Source: a virus (lineage: Duplodnaviria > Heunggongvirae > Uroviricota > Caudoviricetes). From it: a stretch of 33,074 nt of DNA. Made by a program: the position numbers and the translations under genes. The notes beneath the pieces are model-generated. The model saw nothing but the letters and a program-made list of their open reading frames with translations. It was not told the origin of the DNA and made no database searches. Positions 8,459 through 28,054 of this stretch are shown piece after piece (position 1 is the stretch's first letter; every line of letters starts with the position of its first letter). The stretch is taken from IMG/VR virus record IMGVR_UViG_2737471830_000002; one strand, 5' to 3'.

Positions 8459-8958
8459 TATTCGCTCCCGTTATCGCAAGGTTCCTTTCGGTGGAAGTAA
8501 TTCCAACCATTCCACTTCGCCAACTGGTTACCACTACCAACAGGCATACGGTTTGGATAATCGGACTTACATTTAGCGGCTTTTGCTCTGTCCATTGCAG
8601 ACAGTTTGACGAGTCGCTCTTTCCCGTATCTGGCAGTGGTTATAAGTTTTGCAGACGCTTCCAGCGCATAATCCGGAGCAATGCGGCAGGCAAGGTTGAA
8701 AATGACGGCATTGATAGCGTTATTTGATAAGCCGTGTTCATCGCCAGGATCTGGAGCGACATCTGCATCAGCGAAAATGTAGCCAACGTTGATACCTGGT
8801 GACGCATCACCGCCAAGCCATTCAGCCATCATCATTTCAAGGTCGTTGACGCCGTCTTCCATAGACTGCGGTTCGACATCGGTTAACGTGGCATTTGATG
8901 CCACACCGAGCTTACGTAATGCCGCAAGGACTAAATCACCCTTCGTTGTCAGGTTCAT
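8458..8958 (-). CDS. Tail accessory protein (P22 gp4-like)
   Basis: Start at [33 protein letters not shown] (ATG at 8958), matching the P22 gp4 N-terminus; the longer ORF-track start with SQ repeats is an upstream extension. Confidence 0.8.
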
Positions 8959-13976: not shown

Positions 13977-15475
13977 TTAAGTTCTCCGTGCGATGGGCCT
14001 GATTGGGGCTGGTATCTTTTTCTCTTTTGGTTTTTTGATGTCCCGCATCATTTTGGCGAAGCGGCGCATCATGTATGCATAGCGAACGGCTGAGAGAACG
14101 TCGTCGTTAAGCTTGACGATTTTCCCGTTTTCATCACGGTGATAGAGGCGGAACTCCTCAAAGAATGGCTCACATGTGTTGAATACTTTGAAGCGACCAT
14201 CAAGCATCATGTCGCGCAATTCAGTGATGCCTGGCTCAACAGCGTTACCGCCATCAGGCCATGTCGCATGCTCCTGCAGCATCATAAAACCAGCATCTGC
14301 ATACTGCCCTTTGAGCTGCTCACCGCCGCCCTTCTCGTGCTGGTTTCCGTCATGAGGCCATGCTGTTGGCACTTTATGCGCCCATGATTTAACAGCTCCC
14401 CATGCCTGAACGGCTGTTTTTTCTTTCGCCTTCCACACGCGTGAAACGTAGATTGTGTCTGCGTCCTTATCCCACCAAAGCTGAACCTGCGCCTGCGGGT
14501 GATCCCATCCGAAATCCATCCCGCCAATTACGTAGAAGTGATCAGGACACTCGAACGGCTGACACTTAATCGTCTCTTCCGGTATCTGGAAGATTCGACC
14601 ACTACCCATCGTAGGAATACCGCGAGCACGCGCCTCTCTCTCATGCTCAGGATAGGATGCGATGATTTGCTCTTTCTGCTCGTCGGTGTAGTGTTCAGCG
14701 TCATAGATGGTCATGTTGACCACTTTCTGAGACTTGCTGGGATTCTTCAGGAACTTGGTAACAACGTCAGACATCCCCATCAGCGGGGTAAACGTCAGAA
14801 TTGAGAATTGACCGTATTTGTTGGTACGGGTAAGGCCTTCGCCATAAATGCTGTATGGTGGTTCTTCGTCAAACCACACGCCGTGGATTGTGTCACCCTG
14901 CCAGCGAGCACGGCCTTGCGAGTATGGTTTGAAGTAGCAGATTGAAATACCATCTTCAACGCCATCAGCCGTGTGATGCTTAACCAGAAGGTGATCAACA
15001 AGGTTCGGAAAGAAAGGAGACTTCTTCCAGCTAATGATGTCTTCTTTCGGTATGGAACCGTAGCCTGGCTCATCATTCTCTTCGATACGACCACACAGGA
15101 TGCGTTGAGTCGTTTTGGTTACAGTCTCGTTTGTCTCGCCACCAATCCAGAAGACAACAGGCTCATAGAAACGCTTACCTTTCCACTCTCCGCCATATTT
15201 ACCATCAGCAGGATATCCTTTTGTTCCCGGATAAGCCCGGTAAGGTGAAACGCGACTTCGGCAGCACCAGTAAATGACTTACCAAGCTGGTTACCAGCCA
15301 TAAAACAGCGCTCTGGATAGTCATGCCCGGCGTCGATGAACTCACGCTGTTTGCTGTATGGCGTAAATTCATATAGCAGGTGTGTGTTCCGGTAGTTATC
15401 TTCTTCTTCGAGTAGCTCGAGCAATTCGATTTGCTCTTCGTCGCTCAGGTTATCAAGAATCGCGTCCAGTTCCAC
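13977..15475 (-). pseudogene. Terminase large subunit (P22 gp2-like) interrupted by a 1-nt frameshift near 15226..15245
   Basis: N-terminal ORF (15119..15475) carries Walker A AGNQLGKS then turns to nonsense and stops; the adjacent frame reads RAYPGTKGYPADGKYGGEWKGKRFYEPVVFWIGGETNETV... continuous with the 13977..14879 C-terminal ORF. Span is 1499 nt, one short of 500 codons. Confidence 0.8.
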
Positions 15476-15947
15476 GGTTGAATAGCTCCTTGATACGAGA
15501 GCGCCGCTTATCGCGATCTCCCTTATCAGGTGTCACGTCTTCAACTTGCGACTGCTCTTTGAGGCCCAAATCACGGGCGATGATGTTAGCGTTGAGAAGG
15601 TCAGCGGCTGCGCCAGAAAATTTCTGGTCGTAGATGATGTCTTCCGCTCGTGATGTGACGTCAGAAAAACCTTCCATTGACCGGAAGGTTCCCCATGTTT
15701 GCCTGGTGATATCAAGGAAGGTACACAATCCTGAAATAGTCATGGCTCGCATCTTAGGGACATTAGCCTTAATTATTTCTCCCTGATATGAAAATACCTT
15801 ACCCTCCCATAGCGGGTTATCATCAGCCCACTCGAAGTATTCACAACAAGCAGCCCACAGCGCCTCAGGCGATTCGAATTTAGGATTTCGCCCATGACTA
15901 CTGCGGGCCTCCCAAAATCGGTTGCCCTTTGGTGCTGCCATATTCAT
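15453..15947 (-). CDS. Terminase small subunit (P22 gp3-like)
   Basis: [38 protein letters not shown] matches P22 gp3; overlaps the large-subunit start. Confidence 0.8.
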
Positions 15948-15948
15948 C

Positions 15949-16140
15949 TCACTTAATTGTCATTTCTGGTCGTTGGCTCTTCATGCTTTCAATCAATGAC
16001 TGCTTCAGCAATTCGAGTGTGCCAATCGCCTCACATACACTGATTTCACCATAATCATGGATGACGCTTTCCAGCCGCTCGTATAGCTCTTGAGTAATTG
16101 GGAATTTCTTCTCCTTACCCAAATTGATTACGCGGCTCAC
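15949..16140 (-). CDS. Hypothetical small protein (63 aa)
   Basis: ORF tightly packed between upstream small ORF and terminase small subunit. Confidence 0.45.
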
Positions 16141-16141
16141 A

Positions 16142-16384
16142 TCATGCTCCGGTAGTGAACAGGTCTAACGCTTCCTTCGATTTACGCACCGCTTCGATAG
16201 TGCGAGATGTGAAGTCTGGATTTGCACCGCCATCGTTGTAGTGCAACTTGAACAATTCCAGTTTCAGCTGGTCAGCCCCAATGAATGCAAACGCTTCCTC
16301 TGCCGCTGAATTGTTCTTAGATAGCAGTCGGTAAATTTCTAACTTGAATTTCTGTTCTTCAGTCATGGGAATAATCTCTGCCAT
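16142..16384 (-). CDS. Hypothetical small protein (80 aa)
   Basis: ORF with a 1-nt gap to the next gene; a GGGATA-N10-TATCCC hairpin plus T-run lies just upstream. Confidence 0.45.
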   Translation of the reverse strand: MAEIIPMTEEQKFKLEIYRLLSKNNSAAEEAFAFIGADQLKLELFKLHYNDGGANPDFTSRTIEAVRKSKEALDLFTTGA

Positions 16385-16641
16385 TGTTGGCTCCGTTTAT
16401 CCGTTAAAAGGGATATCAGTTAAGTTATCCCGTGTAGGGTATAAGCCATTGTCGAGACCACTCATTGAATGGCCTCTGCAATAACCGATGTCTTTCCATC
16501 AGTCCGCCACCACAAAGAATCTTTTTTTGCCATAAGGCTGGAGGTTCATCTTTCAGTGGCTGCCAGTGTTATTTCCCCACTTTCTGGCTTGGGTTGTGTC
16601 GCTGTACTGCCGTAATGCAAGAACTGGATTAACCAGCAGAA

Positions 16642-17172
16642 TCACACCATTCCGGGCAAATACATTTGCACTTCATTTGCCGCTCTCTGACGTGCAACAT
16701 GAAGCAATCTTTTTCGCCCACCAACGCCCCACTTAGCCATTTGGCTTGCGCACTGGCTTATCGCTTTGGTTTCAGTATTGATGATGTGATCGATTCTATT
16801 CAGACGGGACATTGCGCCAACGCCGAGACGGACAACCGTTTTGAAAACTTCATAAACTTCGATTTCAAATTCCGGCTTAATCCATGCTGCATATCTGATT
16901 GCCAGAAGTTCAACACCCCACACACCTGGTTCTGCACCACCTTTGATTATTTTAAGTGGTTGAATTTGTTCCAAAGTGCTTTTTTGCACTTTGGCCTCCA
17001 GTGCTTTTATGAAGCGTTTTATCTGCGCGCTACGCAAAAACTGGCTTGGGCGCTGTTGCTCTGTAGCCTCTCCATTTGCAACTGCTGCTGCATGGAGATC
17101 GTTTAAGTTGTAGCGTCCATCCTCATCAACACGAACGGACACACCATTGACAATAACTGTTGGGTACTTCAT
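16642..17172 (-). CDS. KilA-N domain protein
   Basis: N-terminus VIVNGVSVRVDEDGRYNLNDLHAAA is typical of KilA-N/APSES-type domains; 176 aa. Confidence 0.6.
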   Translation of the reverse strand: MKYPTVIVNGVSVRVDEDGRYNLNDLHAAAVANGEATEQQRPSQFLRSAQIKRFIKALEAKVQKSTLEQIQPLKIIKGGAEPGVWGVELLAIRYAAWIKPEFEIEVYEVFKTVVRLGVGAMSRLNRIDHIINTETKAISQCASQMAKWGVGGRKRLLHVARQRAANEVQMYLPGMV

Positions 17173-17319
17173 CAGTGATTACCTTTTAGTGATGAACCTT
17201 GTCACACAGGATTCCGGCCCACAGAAAGGCACCGATCACCAAACCGGCATCCTCAAGGGTCATCCTGAAAGGTTCTGTGTTCAGAAGTCGCGCGTGTGAA
17301 GCGCGTTTACTGCGGACAT

Positions 17320-17342
17320 AAAAAAGCCCCGCATCGCGAGGC
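17320..17342 (-). terminator. Intrinsic terminator downstream of the lysis cassette
   Basis: Minus-strand RNA GCCUCGC-GAU-GCGGGGC (one G-U pair) followed by UUUUUU, directly after the Rz stop. Confidence 0.5.
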
Positions 17343-17374
17343 TCATTAAATGGACTTTGTGATTTGCAAAAAAA

Positions 17375-17812
17375 TTATTTCAGGCATTGCGTCCTGATGT
17401 ATTCCTGCAGATAGTTAACCTGCGCGGTTATCTTGTCGATTCCACTTCGGAGACGGTAATAATTGAGTTCAGCATCTGCTGTAAGTCCTGGGCTTTCTCC
17501 ATCGCCCATGCTGCTGGCTCCGGTCGTTGACTTTGCACAGGTGGCGGCGACTTGCAGGCGCTTACGACCAGCAGAAACATCAGCACGGAGACTTTCGATA
17601 GTCGCGTTAGCATCAGCAAGCTCCTTTGTGTATCTGGCGTCAAGTTCTGCTACATCACGTTGACGCTTCTGCATGTCAGCGATTGTGGATGTGGCTTTAT
17701 CGCGCTGCTCTTTGTAGGCGATGGCGTTATCACGGTAATGATTAACAGCCCATGACAGGCAGACGATGATGCAGATAACCAGAGCGGAGATAATCGCAGT
17801 TACTCTGCTCAT
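17375..17812 (-). CDS. Rz: Rz i-spanin
   Basis: 145 aa with N-terminal TM segment and coiled coil; follows R; contains an embedded +1-frame lipoprotein ORF. Confidence 0.8.
17428..17613 (-). CDS. Rz1: Rz1 o-spanin lipoprotein, embedded in Rz
   Basis: Signal peptide with lipobox VVSAC followed by a proline-rich segment ([12 protein letters not shown]); entirely within Rz in another frame. Confidence 0.65.
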
Positions 17813-18285
17813 ACCTCAATCTCTCTGACCGTTCCGCCAGCTTCTTTGAATTTTGCAATCAGGCTGTCAGCCTTATGCTCGAACTGACCATAACCAGCCC
17901 CCGGCAGTGAAGCCCAGATATTGCTGCAACGGTCGATTGCCTGACGAATATCACCGCGGTCAATCATCGGTAAAGCGCCACGCTCTTTAATCTGTTGCAA
18001 TGCCACAGCGTCCTGGCTTTTCGGAGAGAAGTCTTTCAGGCCAAGCTGCTTACGATAGGCATCCCACCAACGGGAAAGAAGCTGGTAACGTCCGGCTGCT
18101 GTTGATTTGAGTTTTGGGTTTAGCGTGACAAGTTTGCGAGGGTGATCGGAGTAATCGGTAAATAGCTCTCCGCCTACAATGACGTCATAACCATGATTTC
18201 TGGTTTTCTGACGTCCGTTATCAGTTCCCTCCGACCACGCCAGCATATCGAGGAACGCCTTACGTTGATTATTGATTTCCACCAT
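17809..18285 (-). CDS. R: Endolysin, lambda R-type lytic transglycosylase
   Basis: 158 aa, [39 protein letters not shown]..., near-identical to lambda R. Confidence 0.95.
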
Positions 18286-18592
18286 CTTCTACTCCGGCTT
18301 TTTTAGCAGCGAAGCGTTTGATAAGCGAACCAATCGAGTCAGTACCGATGTAGCCGATGAACACGCTCGTTATATAAGCGAGATTGCTACTTAGTCCGGC
18401 GAAGTCGAGAAGGTCACGAATGAACCAGGCGATAATGGCGCACATCGTTGCGTCGATTACTGTTTTTGTAAACGCACCGCCATTATATCTGCCGCGAAGG
18501 TACGCCATTGCAAACGCAAGGATTGCCCCGATGCCTTGTTCCTTTGCCGCGAGAATGGCGGCTAACAGGTCATGTTTTTCTGGCATCTTCAT
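18269..18592 (-). CDS. S: Holin/antiholin, lambda S-type
   Basis: 107 aa, [39 protein letters not shown]..., with MKM dual-start motif; near-identical to lambda S. Confidence 0.95.
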
Positions 18593-18883
18593 GTCTTACC
18601 CCCAATAAGGGGATTTGCTCTATTTAATTAGGAATAAGGTCGATTACTGATAGAACAAATCCAGGCTACTGTGTTTAGTAATCAGATTTGTTCGTGACCG
18701 ATATGCACGGGCAAAACGGCAGGAGGTTGTTAGCGCAGCCTCTTGCCACCCGCTTTCACGAAGCCAGCCATTACGCTGGTTTTCTTTTATGCAAAGCACA
18801 CCGCACCGTAGCCACAGCGGATAAGGTGATTATTTTTGTCTGTCTGGTATTTGGTTTGATGTGCTTTCAGAAAGGTCGTGATT

Positions 18884-18918
18884 AAAACGCAAAAAGCCCC
18901 GAGCTATTAACTCAGGGC
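18884..18918 (-). terminator. tR'-like intrinsic terminator shortly downstream of pR'
   Basis: Minus-strand hairpin GCCCUGAG-uuaauag-CUCGGGGC followed by UUUUUGCGUUUU, about 30 to 60 nt downstream of the predicted pR' start. Confidence 0.55.
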
Positions 18919-18947
18919 TTTATTTAACGAGTGCATTTATCCATCGT

Positions 18948-18984
18948 TGTGTCAAATTTACCCAACTTTATTCAAAAAGTCAAT
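18948..18984 (-). promoter_or_regulatory. Late promoter pR' with Q-utilization region
   Basis: Minus-strand TTGACT (18984..18979), 18-bp spacer, TAAATT (18960..18955); the stretch TTGACTTTTTGAATAAAGTTGGGTAAATTTGAC closely matches lambda pR'. Confidence 0.6.
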
Positions 18985-19025
18985 ATCATGCCGTAAAGAT
19001 GTTGCCATCCGTGGCAATCATGCCG

Positions 19026-19649
19026 CTAACGTGTGACCGCATTCAAAATATTGTCTGCGATTGACTCTTCCTTGTGGCATTGCACCACCAGAGCGTCATA
19101 CAGCGGCTTAACAGTGCGTGACCAGGTGGGTTGAGTAAGGTTTGGGATTAGCATCGTTACAGCGCGATATGCGGCGCTTGCTGGCATTCTTGAATAGCCG
19201 ACACCTTTGCATCTTCCGCATTCTTTCTCAACAACTCTCCCCCACTGCTCTGTTTTTGCTATATCAACCGCACGACCTGTACCGTGGCAATCTCTGCATC
19301 TTGCGCCCGGCGTCGCGGCACTACGGCAATAATCCGCATAAGCGAATGTTGCGAGTACTTGCAGTACCTTTGCCTTAGTATTTCCTTCGAGCTTTGCCAC
19401 ACCACGGTATTTCCCCGATACCTTGTGTGCAAATTGCATCAGATAGTTGATAGCCTTTTGTTTGTCGTTCTGGCTGAGTTCATGCTTACCGCAGAATGCA
19501 GCCATTCCGAATCCGGCTTGTGATTGCGCCATCCCCATAGCAGCCATCACATCAGTACCGGAAAGAGAGTCAGAAGCCGTAGCCCGTGGTGAGTCGCTCA
19601 TCATCGGGCTTTTTGGCGAATGAAATTTAGCTACGCTTTCGAGTCTCAT
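19026..19649 (-). CDS. Q: Late gene antiterminator Q (lambda-type)
   Basis: 207 aa, MRLESVAKFHSPKSPMMSDSPRATASDSLSG...CRDCHGTGRAVD...CGRCKGVGYS, near-identical to lambda Q. Confidence 0.9.
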   Translation of the reverse strand: MRLESVAKFHSPKSPMMSDSPRATASDSLSGTDVMAAMGMAQSQAGFGMAAFCGKHELSQNDKQKAINYLMQFAHKVSGKYRGVAKLEGNTKAKVLQVLATFAYADYCRSAATPGARCRDCHGTGRAVDIAKTEQWGRVVEKECGRCKGVGYSRMPASAAYRAVTMLIPNLTQPTWSRTVKPLYDALVVQCHKEESIADNILNAVTR

Positions 19650-27782: not shown

Positions 27783-27917
27783 ATGATGCACTTTCAGCTC
27801 GCGGGTAGCGGCGTCATGTCCGCTTTCTACCCGCACGAATCTGAATTATCACGCCGAGTTAAACAATTAATCAGAGCAGCAAAGAAACAACTGGAGGCGT
27901 TATGCGCAATGAAATAG
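27783..27917 (+). CDS. cIII: CIII-like protein (FtsH inhibitor family)
   Basis: 44 aa from ATG at 27783 (AAGGAG RBS); HFQLAGSGVMSAFYPHESELSRRVKQLIRAAKK parallels the lambda CIII central helix. Confidence 0.5.
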   Translation: MMHFQLAGSGVMSAFYPHESELSRRVKQLIRAAKKQLEALCAMK

Positions 27918-28054
27918 CCATTAATCACCAGATGCTTCGTGCTGCACAGAACAAAGCAGTAATAGCCAGATTTATTGGTGATTCAAAAATGTGGCTTGAA
28001 GCAAATAAAGCGATGAAATCAGCTATCAACCTTCCGTGGTATCGCAGGAAATGA
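27902..28054 (+). CDS. kil: Kil-like small protein
   Basis: 50 aa; start overlaps the cIII-like stop, GGAGG RBS; VIARFIGDSKMWLEANKAMKSAI resembles the lambda Kil core as recalled. Confidence 0.4.
   Translation: MRNEIAINHQMLRAAQNKAVIARFIGDSKMWLEANKAMKSAINLPWYRRK

Follow-up and report, generated by a model that had tools for sequence, protein, structure and literature searches.

A probable P22-like lysis-to-packaging junction with a conserved non-coding spacer and a candidate RNA hairpin

The rha - orf25 - pid - orf80 - orf59c - gene 3 region of phage P22 (NC_002371 39575-41724) fills the interval from gene 15 (Rz) to gene 3, and related arrangements are found in HK620 (hkbK - hkbL - hkbM - hkbN; NC_002730 18129-19657) and in Sf6 (genes 65-68). 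One of the P22 genes, pid, has been described as a moron (PMC3573128). P22 carrying the deletion delta(orf25-orf80) is viable (PMC11016777), and orf80 is dispensable in P22 with no phenotype reported (bioRxiv 10.1101/2023.08.15.553423; PMC11016777). Our literature search on DUF2560, the family to which the orf80 product belongs, and on orf80 and orf59c themselves returned nothing beyond such statements of dispensability.

The window analysed here, a 33,074-nt stretch of a Caudoviricetes virus (IMG/VR record IMGVR_UViG_2737471830_000002), contains the same place in its late region, where all late genes lie on the minus strand. Rz (17812..17375, Pfam Phage_lysis/Rz) is upstream and the small terminase gene (15947..15453, Pfam GP3_package) downstream, so that the lysis and terminase flanks named in the preliminary description are borne out by Pfam. 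Between them, co-oriented with the late operon, are a 176-aa KilA-N ORF (16642..17172), a 257-bp non-coding gap (16385..16641), an 80-aa DUF2560 ORF (16142..16384) and a 63-aa ORF with a GTG start (15949..16140) that begins 1 nt past the stop of the 80-aa ORF; the three ORFs, the gap and the GGGATA-N10-TATCCC repeat inside the gap are all where they had been placed. Roughly 2,800 E. coli genomes have a match, and 36 of the E. coli genomes examined share the same four-part arrangement with about 94-96% identity; annotated homologues of the region's genes are present in UPF_BP1, P6, HK620, P22, CUS-3 and Sf6. We conclude that the interval is probably a standard mosaic lysis-to-packaging junction of a P22-like (Lederbergvirus-type) prophage late operon, made of four independent pieces. 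The gene set at 15949-17172 is already known: it is the hkbK/orf80/orf59c neighbourhood familiar from P22-like phages, still uncharacterised and found in enterobacterial genomes by the thousand, and as a gene set it holds nothing new.

Direct comparison with the named phages shows both the shared frame and the exchanged parts. The 80- and 63-aa ORFs have their direct homologues in P22 orf80 and orf59c, in a block of 86% DNA identity; P22 has Rha (Phage_pRha + ORF11CD3) where the window has a KilA-N protein, and it carries an antisense pid cassette that the window lacks. HK620 and Sf6 have the same gene order as the window, with hkbM and gp67 as the DUF2560 genes and hkbN and gp68 as members of the 63-aa family, and the HK620 spacer is 98% identical to that of the window, the counterpart of the gap lying at 18881-19233 in HK620. 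Sf6 has no KilA-N gene, and its gene 66 (PF13876) sits inside the sequence corresponding to the gap. As a separate observation, high identity among lambdoid phages may reflect recent exchange rather than selection.

The KilA-N assignment made earlier for the 176-aa protein held up in Pfam (PF04383, E 7.2e-18, 64.8 bits against a cut-off of 23.8, aa 9-113), and the protein also matches phrog_129, 'transcriptional regulator', at E 4.5e-60. HK620 HkbK is a KilA-N protein too, but BLASTP finds it only 26% identical to the window protein (174 aa, E 2e-16). The C-terminus gives no match to ORF11CD3 (PF10549) or any other Pfam model at E <= 0.1, and in pairwise BLASTP it is weakly similar to the ORF11CD3 region of HkbK (E 1e-4, 26% identity over 54 aa); on these alignments, we read the protein as an N-terminal KilA-N DNA-binding domain followed by a C-terminal region that is weakly ORF11CD3-like. 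The gene's slot after Rz is that of P22 rha, whose classical phenotype concerns growth on IHF-deficient hosts, and of HK620 hkbK; across phages it is occupied by fusions of a KilA-N or Phage_pRha head with an ORF11CD3 or P63C tail. The first of the four pieces would be a 'Bro-network' DNA-binding protein, one of several interchangeable occupants of the post-Rz slot. It resembles other such proteins in joining a KilA-N head to a short C-terminal module, in a slot that hosts alternative head and tail combinations; unlike the named two-domain types, its C-terminal module reaches no Pfam model.

The 80- and 63-aa ORFs, previously listed as small unknowns, are real and conserved members of uncharacterised families. 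The 80-aa protein matches DUF2560 (PF10834) over the full profile (1-72 of 72; E 5.5e-37, 126.3 bits, cut-off 25) and is the homologue of P22 Orf80, HK620 HkbM and Sf6 gp67. Its AlphaFold model has four predicted helices (pLDDT 77). Of the loci in which a P22-like small terminase lies downstream, 58/58 contain DUF2560, which indicates that it acts as a near-core gene; this third piece accompanies each P22-like small terminase sampled, and it deserves a closer look, as it tags along with the P22-like small terminase whatever the terminase type, despite being dispensable in the laboratory.

The 63-aa protein, homologue of P22 Orf59c (92.5% identity to orf59c), HK620 HkbN and Sf6 gp68, matches phrog_3546, the P22 Orf59c/HK620 HkbN family, which likewise lies upstream of the small terminase, over its full length (E 1.7e-38). 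Structure prediction, proposed in the preliminary description for the three proteins along with HMM searches, gave this one a predicted ribbon-helix-helix (RHH; strand-helix-helix) fold; the model of the 80-aa protein had no structural match (all E > 1). In comparison with the Arc/MetJ/CopG ribbon-helix-helix proteins, the 63-aa model has an extra N-terminal strand and is without a match at the level of sequence: neither the single sequence nor profiles found an RHH Pfam family or PDB chain, and profiles that included 60 distant family members, recovered by an exhaustive HMM search, again matched no RHH family in PDB or Pfam. We looked for relatives of one distant member in viral contigs and found none. 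A packaging-specific role for the family was considered and rejected, on the single case that the sole distant homologue in an isolated phage sits in the nin region. The fourth piece would be an optional small ribbon-helix-helix protein, found in 19/58 of the loci with a P22-like small terminase, all of which carry DUF2560. The predicted fold offers a testable DNA-binding hypothesis for the P22 orf59c family, which has stayed unannotated since the P22 genome was finished.

The interval had been called a moron hot spot and the three ORFs one accessory cluster. The first of these claims agrees with the work of Cenens et al. and with our survey of 136 loci, where many alternative gene contents appear on either side of the spacer; the second does not agree with the same survey, in which the three genes assort independently. 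Presence/absence polymorphism, as expected of morons, is seen for the KilA-N and 63-aa genes and not for DUF2560 (58/58). An own promoter and terminator are missing from all three ORFs by consensus scan: promoter-like sites number 4 against 4.3 expected by chance, none of them upstream of the three ORFs, and the scan found no terminator after them. A terminator-like hairpin was found instead just downstream of Rz and before the KilA-N gene (17324..17344, minus strand; outside the interval first described), with a 9-bp stem, 6 G-C pairs and a U run, and its position implies that the cluster can be reached from the late promoter only by antiterminated polymerase. We infer from this layout that all four pieces are most likely transcribed only within the Q-antiterminated late transcript.

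It is distinctly unlikely that the three ORFs form a genuine moron-type system (anti-phage, host-modulating or toxin-antitoxin), expressed from the prophage to the benefit of the lysogen. The site is indeed a published moron locus through pid (PMC3573128), the prophage abortive-infection protein BstA has a KilA-N head as well (PMC8585504), and the 80- and 63-aa ORFs lie only 1 nt apart. The G+C of the cluster, 44-46% against about 50% in the neighbours, is slightly under that of its flanks, and slightly lower G+C is the usual signature of accessory DNA. Against this, none of the three proteins matched PADLOC-DB, which includes KilA-N proteins such as BstA, at E <= 0.1, and searches of NCBIfam and PDB sequences gave no match either. 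Nor do the promoter scan and the late-operon orientation of the ORFs fit prophage expression; in most loci surveyed, Rha-type genes or nothing at all stand in place of the KilA-N gene, and orf80 can be lost from P22 without a reported phenotype, as cited above. A type II toxin-antitoxin pair of DUF2560 and the RHH protein was rejected on co-occurrence, which is not obligate: the RHH gene accompanies DUF2560 in only 19/58 loci, and a toxin would not survive without its antitoxin. At the same time, the HMM searches yielded KilA-N, DUF2560 and phrog_3546 and no match to a characterised housekeeping phage protein for any of the three ORFs.

The 257-bp gap, described before as otherwise unexplained apart from its short hairpin, proved to be a widely shared and constrained non-coding element. 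It is matched in 200 phage records, HK022-type siphoviruses among them, and in many of these no annotated feature lies beneath the match. Across 39 loci, the spacer differs pairwise by 0-4% per 25-nt bin and DUF2560 third codon positions in the same loci by 9.8%, an excess of about 2-5 times over the greater part of the spacer. The sample for this comparison was drawn by an exact 24-nt anchor inside the downstream part of the spacer (module B, below), so that hairpin 2 and the sequence between the two hairpins could not vary in it. Folding of the whole spacer gave z -3.7 in the late sense and z -0.9 in the antisense. That the spacer is neutral DNA which looks conserved through recent lambdoid exchange, with all of its hairpins due to chance, seems very unlikely to us. 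Lambdoid phages do share many blocks at >95% identity, and one 6-bp repeat in the gap is at chance level, but such a history does not account for the faster change of the neighbour's third codon positions or for a hairpin with z -5.35 whose pairing is kept across diverged variants.

The spacer has two modules. Module A is a 127-nt non-coding block (16487..16613, minus strand; 0-4% pairwise difference per 25-nt bin) common to P22/BTP1, where it follows directly after the rha stop (92.6% identity between P22 and the window), and to HK620, CUS-3, Sf6 and the siphovirus HK022. Module B (16396..16486, minus strand) consists of hairpin 1, a spacer, hairpin 2 and GGAUAAA; its 3' half is diverged in P22. 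Mosaic junctions lie at both edges of module B, and architectures vary freely on either side. Sf6 gene 66 is inserted at the joint of the two modules, 16486/16487. Aligned by hand, the pid cassette of P22 begins directly after GGATAAA, at 16396/16395, and so do the divergent genes that lie downstream in other phages; from BLAST alone, the P22 break falls somewhere in 16398-16426. On these alignments, the gap is the uninterrupted (empty) form of the site that bears pid in P22 and gene 66 in Sf6, and the second piece is this conserved two-module spacer in its empty form.

It is extremely unlikely that the gap hides a small protein gene, be it a P22 orf25-like gene, the 21-28 aa ORF of module A or an antisense pid-like gene. 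P22 has orf25 annotated at the homologous place and pid antisense, and plus-strand ORFs of 48-55 aa exist in the gap. However, variants of module A with A5, A6 or A7 runs at 16522-16528 and with ATG->ATA changes break both the module A ORF and every plus-strand ORF that crosses 16522-16528, which rules out a coding reading of module A; the A7 run, like a TerL frameshift at 15230-15240, may be a sequencing error. The same run-length and start-codon variants go against a P22-style orf25, whose frame here has 16 codons and lies inside the hairpins, and tblastn with Pid found no match in the window even at E <= 10, so that a pid-like gene was discarded as well.

We also searched for known elements. 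No Rfam family matched anywhere in the window at the gathering threshold. At E <= 10 in 15900-17450, the sole late-strand match inside the gap was Proteo-phage-1, at 16.8 bits with a cut-off of 42, and the other three matches in that range were equally far under their thresholds. A full-text search with three diagnostic spacer oligonucleotides returned only unrelated primer matches. To our knowledge, and by eye, the spacer does not fit the consensus of an ERIC-like repeat, a DnaA box, an IHF site or an HK022 put-like antiterminator RNA. When genome contigs were scanned with the pattern GAYAATGGCTTATACC, which has 15 specified bases, most matches were chance ones in unrelated phyla and about six were real.

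A tentative alternative is that the spacer serves chiefly at the level of DNA, as a linker or boundary and a joint for homologous recombination between the lysis, accessory and packaging modules, with the hairpins incidental or secondary. The mosaic breakpoints do coincide with the module edges (16613/16614, 16486/16487 and 16396/16395), the block links three terminase types, as well as HNH/cos packaging modules, with upstream genes of at least five kinds, and the Sf6 record bears 'boundary sequence' features elsewhere, such as bsq7. At the same time, recombination anchors need identity and not structure, and a linker does not predict the compensatory stem changes, the invariant internal loop or the excess of G.U over A.C (61 against <=15) described below. 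A linker is compatible with a function in RNA and does not exclude one. On our main reading, too, the conserved block offers anchor points for homologous recombination, which would explain the clustering of mosaic junctions and moron insertions there.

Hairpin 2 (16406..16431, minus strand) is the repeat noticed at the outset, with GGGATA at 16410-16415, TATCCC at 16426-16431 and a 10-nt spacer between them; in the late sense it reads GGGAUA-ACUUAACUGA-UAUCCC, followed by UUUU, with dG -8.3. The repeat is present as had been claimed, but on its own it is not significant, and the stronger hairpin at 16444-16486 had been missed. Of 2000 shuffles of the gap, 37% contained one or more perfect inverted repeats of 6 bp with a loop of 3-12 nt, so as a bare pattern hairpin 2 is at chance level and is meaningful only through its conservation. 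About 130 independent contigs carry GGGATA-N10-TATCCC unchanged, P22 retains GGATA-N10-TATCC around a loop of unrelated sequence, and two variants of the 3' arm (CCC->CCU) preserve a G.U pair.

Lying between the moron slot and the packaging genes, and with UUUU after its late-sense stem, hairpin 2 invites comparison with a terminator. We consider it unlikely that hairpin 2 and its U run, perhaps aided by hairpin 1, form a weak intrinsic terminator or insulator that Q-modified polymerase ignores, and just as unlikely that such a device would block read-through, in the prophage state, from accessory-gene promoters into the terminase genes. Most contigs keep the UUUU, while three have AACAAG or CACAAG instead. 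The 6-bp stem, 10-nt loop, four U and dG of -8.3 fall outside the criteria of our intrinsic terminator scan, which did not call hairpin 2, and do not amount to the G+C-rich stem, short loop and U tract of >=5 that mark such terminators; hairpin 1 is without a U tract, and the pattern of hairpin 2 alone is expected by chance.

Hairpin 1 is a two-tier stem-loop of 43 nt (16444..16486, minus strand), which reads in the late sense GGUUAUUG-CA-GAGGCCAUUC-AAU-GAGUGGUCUC-GA-CAAUGGCU. Its folding energy is -23.0 kcal/mol (z -5.35), compared with -10.2 for the opposite strand. The CA/GA internal loop is invariant and both stems covary: 96% of the cells are paired, against 31-52% with a slid partner, and five pairs show compensatory double changes. 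None of 500 shuffles reached the covariation score, in a control that ignores relatedness; the variants fall into only three or four lineages, which means that the compensatory changes represent few independent events. A manual count gave 61 G.U cells against at most 15 possible wobbles on the other strand, and a covariance model (R1) scores 65.7 bits at hairpin 1. Taken together, the compensatory changes and the strand bias in G.U suggest that the late transcript carries an RNA element here.

From these features, and by analogy with known processing sites, we infer that the function of the spacer most likely lies in RNA, where the 43-nt hairpin 1 and its copies may serve between cistrons of the late mRNA as a structure for processing, perhaps of the RNase III type, or for 3' stabilisation. 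A bolder proposal, which we put forward only as a possibility, is that the spacer is an undescribed and widespread cis-acting RNA element of lambdoid late operons, shared by P22-like podoviruses and HK022/HK97-like siphoviruses. Its unit, no less tentatively, would be CCAUUACA-stem-loop-stem-GAUAAUGG with the invariant CA/GA loop, bracketing an almost invariant 127-nt core. If so, the packaging genes would have their expression set at this element, through processing, stabilisation or the binding of a protein, and the element would also mark the cassette boundaries where morons such as pid and gene 66 come and go. A functional spacer would be relevant to the processing of long late transcripts in phages, and would help explain why moron insertions and mosaic joints are concentrated at this place.

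The closest likeness is to the RNase III intercistronic hairpins of T7 and to lambda sib, with which hairpin 1 shares a stem of about 18 bp broken by a small conserved internal loop and a place between cistrons of a long phage transcript. With about 18 bp and a 2x2 internal loop, the helix of hairpin 1 is rather short for an RNase III substrate. Its short helix and lack of sequence similarity set it apart from the T7 and lambda sites, and the resemblance is in the possible mode of action only. As in those systems, hairpin 1 is repeated after several genes: in related phages, copies lie 1-10 nt past the stop codons of other accessory genes, and a second copy is found directly after the stop codon of hkbL or Sf6 gp65 in 16 of the 39 loci, HK620 having such a second copy along with its extra hkbL gene.

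The late genes of this P22-like (Lederbergvirus-type) prophage or phage lie on the - strand, in the order Q-like antiterminator (19649..19026), holin (18592..18269), endolysin (18285..17809), Rz (17812..17375), a 176-aa ORF (17172..16642), an 80-aa ORF (16384..16142), a 63-aa ORF (16140..15949) and small terminase (15947..15453), with large terminase and portal beyond. A gap of 257 bp (16641..16385) separates the 176-aa and 80-aa ORFs. The coordinates and ORF lengths in the preliminary description, and the GGGATA-N10-TATCCC repeat it placed in the gap (16410-16415 and 16426-16431), are all correct in the sequence; its interpretation held in part, as the gap is a conserved spacer and the three ORFs do not behave as a single cassette. 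The G+C content of the cluster is 44-46%, slightly below that of its neighbours (about 50%). A 25-codon hydrophobic candidate ORF (MTLEDAGLVIGAFLWAGILCDKVHH; 17186-17263, - strand) lies between Rz and the 176-aa gene, where Salmonella phage UPF_BP1 has an annotated 54-aa ORF. The large terminase gene (P22 gp2 homologue; 13977-15475, - strand) is split by one frameshift at 15230-15240, so that residues 1-80 (15475..15236) and 82-497 (15233..13986) are read in different frames, the second part without an internal stop; the split reflects a sequencing error or else a prophage that is defective.

In the 176-aa protein, aa 9-113 form a KilA-N domain (Pfam E 7.2e-18; also phrog_129), from which we infer that the protein may bind DNA. 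Its C-terminal 55 residues matched no Pfam model; they align weakly (E 1e-4) with the ORF11CD3 domain of HK620 HkbK, to which the whole protein is 26% identical (E 2e-16). HkbK occupies the same slot and joins KilA-N to ORF11CD3; other occupants are P22 Rha and CUS-3 gp24 (Phage_pRha + ORF11CD3) and HK022 gp73 (KilA-N + P63C). Slot genes in relatives share the build of the 176-aa protein, with a head and a tail domain, and it is therefore the positional equivalent of P22 rha. Domain mixing of this sort is what PMC10111431 lists as the domain-swapping 'Bro network'.

The 80-aa ORF encodes a full-length DUF2560 protein (E 5.5e-37), of the family that takes in P22 Orf80, HK620 HkbM and Sf6 gp67. 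Its AlphaFold model has four helices (pLDDT 77), and Foldseek found no structural relative of it. Many database DUF2560 entries are 102-129 aa long, compared with 80 aa here; their N-terminal extensions would be translated from the 3' block of the spacer (module B, below), and therefore their start codons are probably miscalled. The RHH fold predicted for the orf59c family of the 63-aa protein is new, and we treat it as a lead, not a result. A homologue of the 63-aa protein (43% identity) occurs in Providencia phage PSTCR7lys (3004-3177), where its nin-region gene is flanked by the replicative helicase and Q and is not next to a terminase; this single case indicates that the family is not tied to the packaging genes.

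Do these three ORFs make up one accessory cluster, as had been proposed? To 129 IMG/VR contigs retrieved with a 24-nt spacer anchor we added the annotated phages and a small number of genome contigs, and in the resulting 136 loci a panel of 19 proteins served to identify the neighbouring genes. Downstream of the spacer, 58 loci have a P22-like small terminase, three types of which are represented; all 58 have DUF2560, only 19 have the 63-aa gene, and a few have other small genes in the interval. Upstream, 42 of the 105 loci with enough sequence have no panel gene, and the remainder have genes of the Rha or KilA-N type, accompanied in some cases by hkbL and in some by a member of the Sf6 gene-66 family (PF13876). 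These differing contents on either side of the spacer mean that the three ORFs assort independently, which speaks against a single functional cassette and, given 19/58 against 58/58, especially against the 80-aa and 63-aa ORFs being a toxin-antitoxin pair. The three ORFs are there as described, and it is their union into one cluster that finds no support: DUF2560 accompanies the packaging genes almost as a core gene would, and the KilA-N and RHH (63-aa) genes are optional. None of the three proteins matched defence-system models, NCBIfam models or, by sequence, solved structures.

Rz is followed directly by a strong intrinsic-terminator-like hairpin (17344..17324, - strand; 9-bp stem, then a T run), which precedes the KilA-N gene. 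A scan of 15400-18700 gave no more promoter-like sites than chance predicts (4, against 4.3 expected), and none of them is upstream of the three ORFs. The simplest reading is that the cluster would be expressed as part of the antiterminated late transcript, its three genes being presumptive late-operon passengers. P22 orf25 and orf80 are dispensable for lysogeny and lytic growth (bioRxiv 10.1101/2023.08.15.553423), and viable phage are still obtained from an orf25-orf80 deletion (PMC11016777). Nothing about this gene set is unusual, and it was known before.

The gap, which the preliminary description left otherwise unexplained, turned out to be a conserved spacer and an empty moron site. It is common to 200 phage records, with 96-98% identity in HK620, CUS-3 and N7 and in the siphoviruses HK022, HK140, mEp235 and HK446, and most of the best-matching records have no annotated feature under the match; parts of a 1.5-kb query (15900-17400) matched in 2,806 of 5,426 complete E. 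coli genomes. Sequence comparison divides it, in late sense, into module A (16613..16487) and module B (16486..16396). Module A follows the rha stop in P22 and the KilA-N stop in the window and precedes gene 66 in Sf6; module B is also found without it, in Stx2 phages such as 1717. Mosaic breakpoints coincide with the module edges. Gene 66 is inserted at 16486/16487 in Sf6 and E. coli STEC383, and BLAST locates the P22 break between 16398 and 16426. By manual alignment, P22 retains a diverged 3' half of module B, and its pid cassette (terminator, gene and promoter, all antisense) separates GGATAAA from the orf80 ribosome-binding site, at a position equivalent to 16396/16395 in the window. Cenens et al. 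(2013; PMC3573128) had identified a moron locus at this position, with PS34 among the phages in which it is empty. The window belongs to the empty-site phages as well; tblastn with Pid gave no match within it. A role as a DNA-level recombination linker fits the breakpoint pattern and is compatible with a role in RNA.

Module A is non-coding, because an A run within it (16522-16528) is 5, 6 or 7 long depending on the contig and the one plausible start codon of the module reads ATA in HK022 and other phages. The window has 7 A (late sense) and almost all relatives have 6, with A5 and A7 also seen in IMG/VR contigs; the window's run could alternatively be a sequencing artefact.

In 39 loci that carry both modules and DUF2560 on one contiguous stretch, pairs of sequences differ on average by 0-4.4% per 25-nt bin of modules A and B, compared with 9.8% at third and 2.1% at second codon positions of the adjacent DUF2560 gene, so the gap is more conserved than neighbouring synonymous sites. 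Its late-sense strand folds more stably than all 200 shuffles (z -3.7), whereas the opposite strand does no better than shuffles (z -0.9). The main structural feature is a 43-nt two-tier stem-loop, hairpin 1 (16486..16444, late sense), in which a CA/GA internal loop separates a lower stem of 8 bp from an upper stem of 10 bp capped by an AAU loop (dG -23.0 kcal/mol, z -5.35; reverse complement -10.2). We compared 21 distinct variants, which fall in three or four lineages only and hence represent few independent events. Standard pairs fill 96% of pair cells, a share that drops to 31-52% if the 3' side is shifted by 1-3 columns; five pairs have changed on both sides (e.g. GAG...CUC versus AAA...UUU), and the CA/GA loop is invariant. 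The covariation score was reached by none of 500 shuffles, a control that ignores the relatedness of the variants. Moreover, by our own count from the per-pair table there are 61 G.U cells against at most 15 possible opposite-strand wobbles, an excess that points to selection on hairpin 1 as late-sense RNA. This covarying hairpin has no Rfam family and is new; it too is a lead, not a result.

R1, a covariance model built from hairpin 1, finds one copy in the window (65.7 bits); 16 of 39 related loci have a second, always on the late strand, upstream of module A and 1-10 nt past the stop codon of the upstream gene (hkbL, Sf6 gp65 or another). The whole HK620 genome has only two copies (18882-17 and 19132-74), and its carefully annotated record lists no feature at either. 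Copies in other loci include those at 1171-1212 of the Sf6 locus and 8751-8791 of another contig (locus coordinates). In one contig there is a third copy, whose lower stem is the same but whose upper stem differs completely. The two-tier hairpin is thus a small repeat family. A weak R1 match in the early region of the window (27916-27967, - strand; 16.4 bits; E about 0.03, the model being only roughly calibrated) is probably due to chance.

In hairpin 2, the GGGATA-N10-TATCCC repeat, the 5' arm could not vary in the sample, since the 24-nt anchor fixed that part of module B, and the 3' arm shows only two CCC->CCU changes, both keeping a G.U pair. P22 keeps GGATA-N10-TATCC with an unrelated loop, and a bare 6-bp repeat of this kind is present in 37% of shuffles by chance. 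The annotated P22 'orf25' (NC_002371 40329-40406) begins within the 3' arm of hairpin 1 and extends across hairpin 2; in the window this frame is only 16 codons long, and orf25 is probably not a gene. The hairpins described here probably act on late mRNA, as intercistronic processing or 3'-stabilising structures; their likeness to the RNase III sites of T7 and lambda sib is one of anatomy only. Hairpin 2 could possibly be a weak terminator or insulator, a role for which its anatomy is poor. The 3' half of module B (16396-16443, late sense) also contains four GGGATAA/TTATCCC-like heptads in alternating orientation, TTATACCC-N5-GGGATAA-N8-ATATCCC-N7-GGATAAA; P22 has non-alignable sequence at this position with the same motifs kept, and the heptads could serve in alternative RNA pairings or form an operator for a protein.
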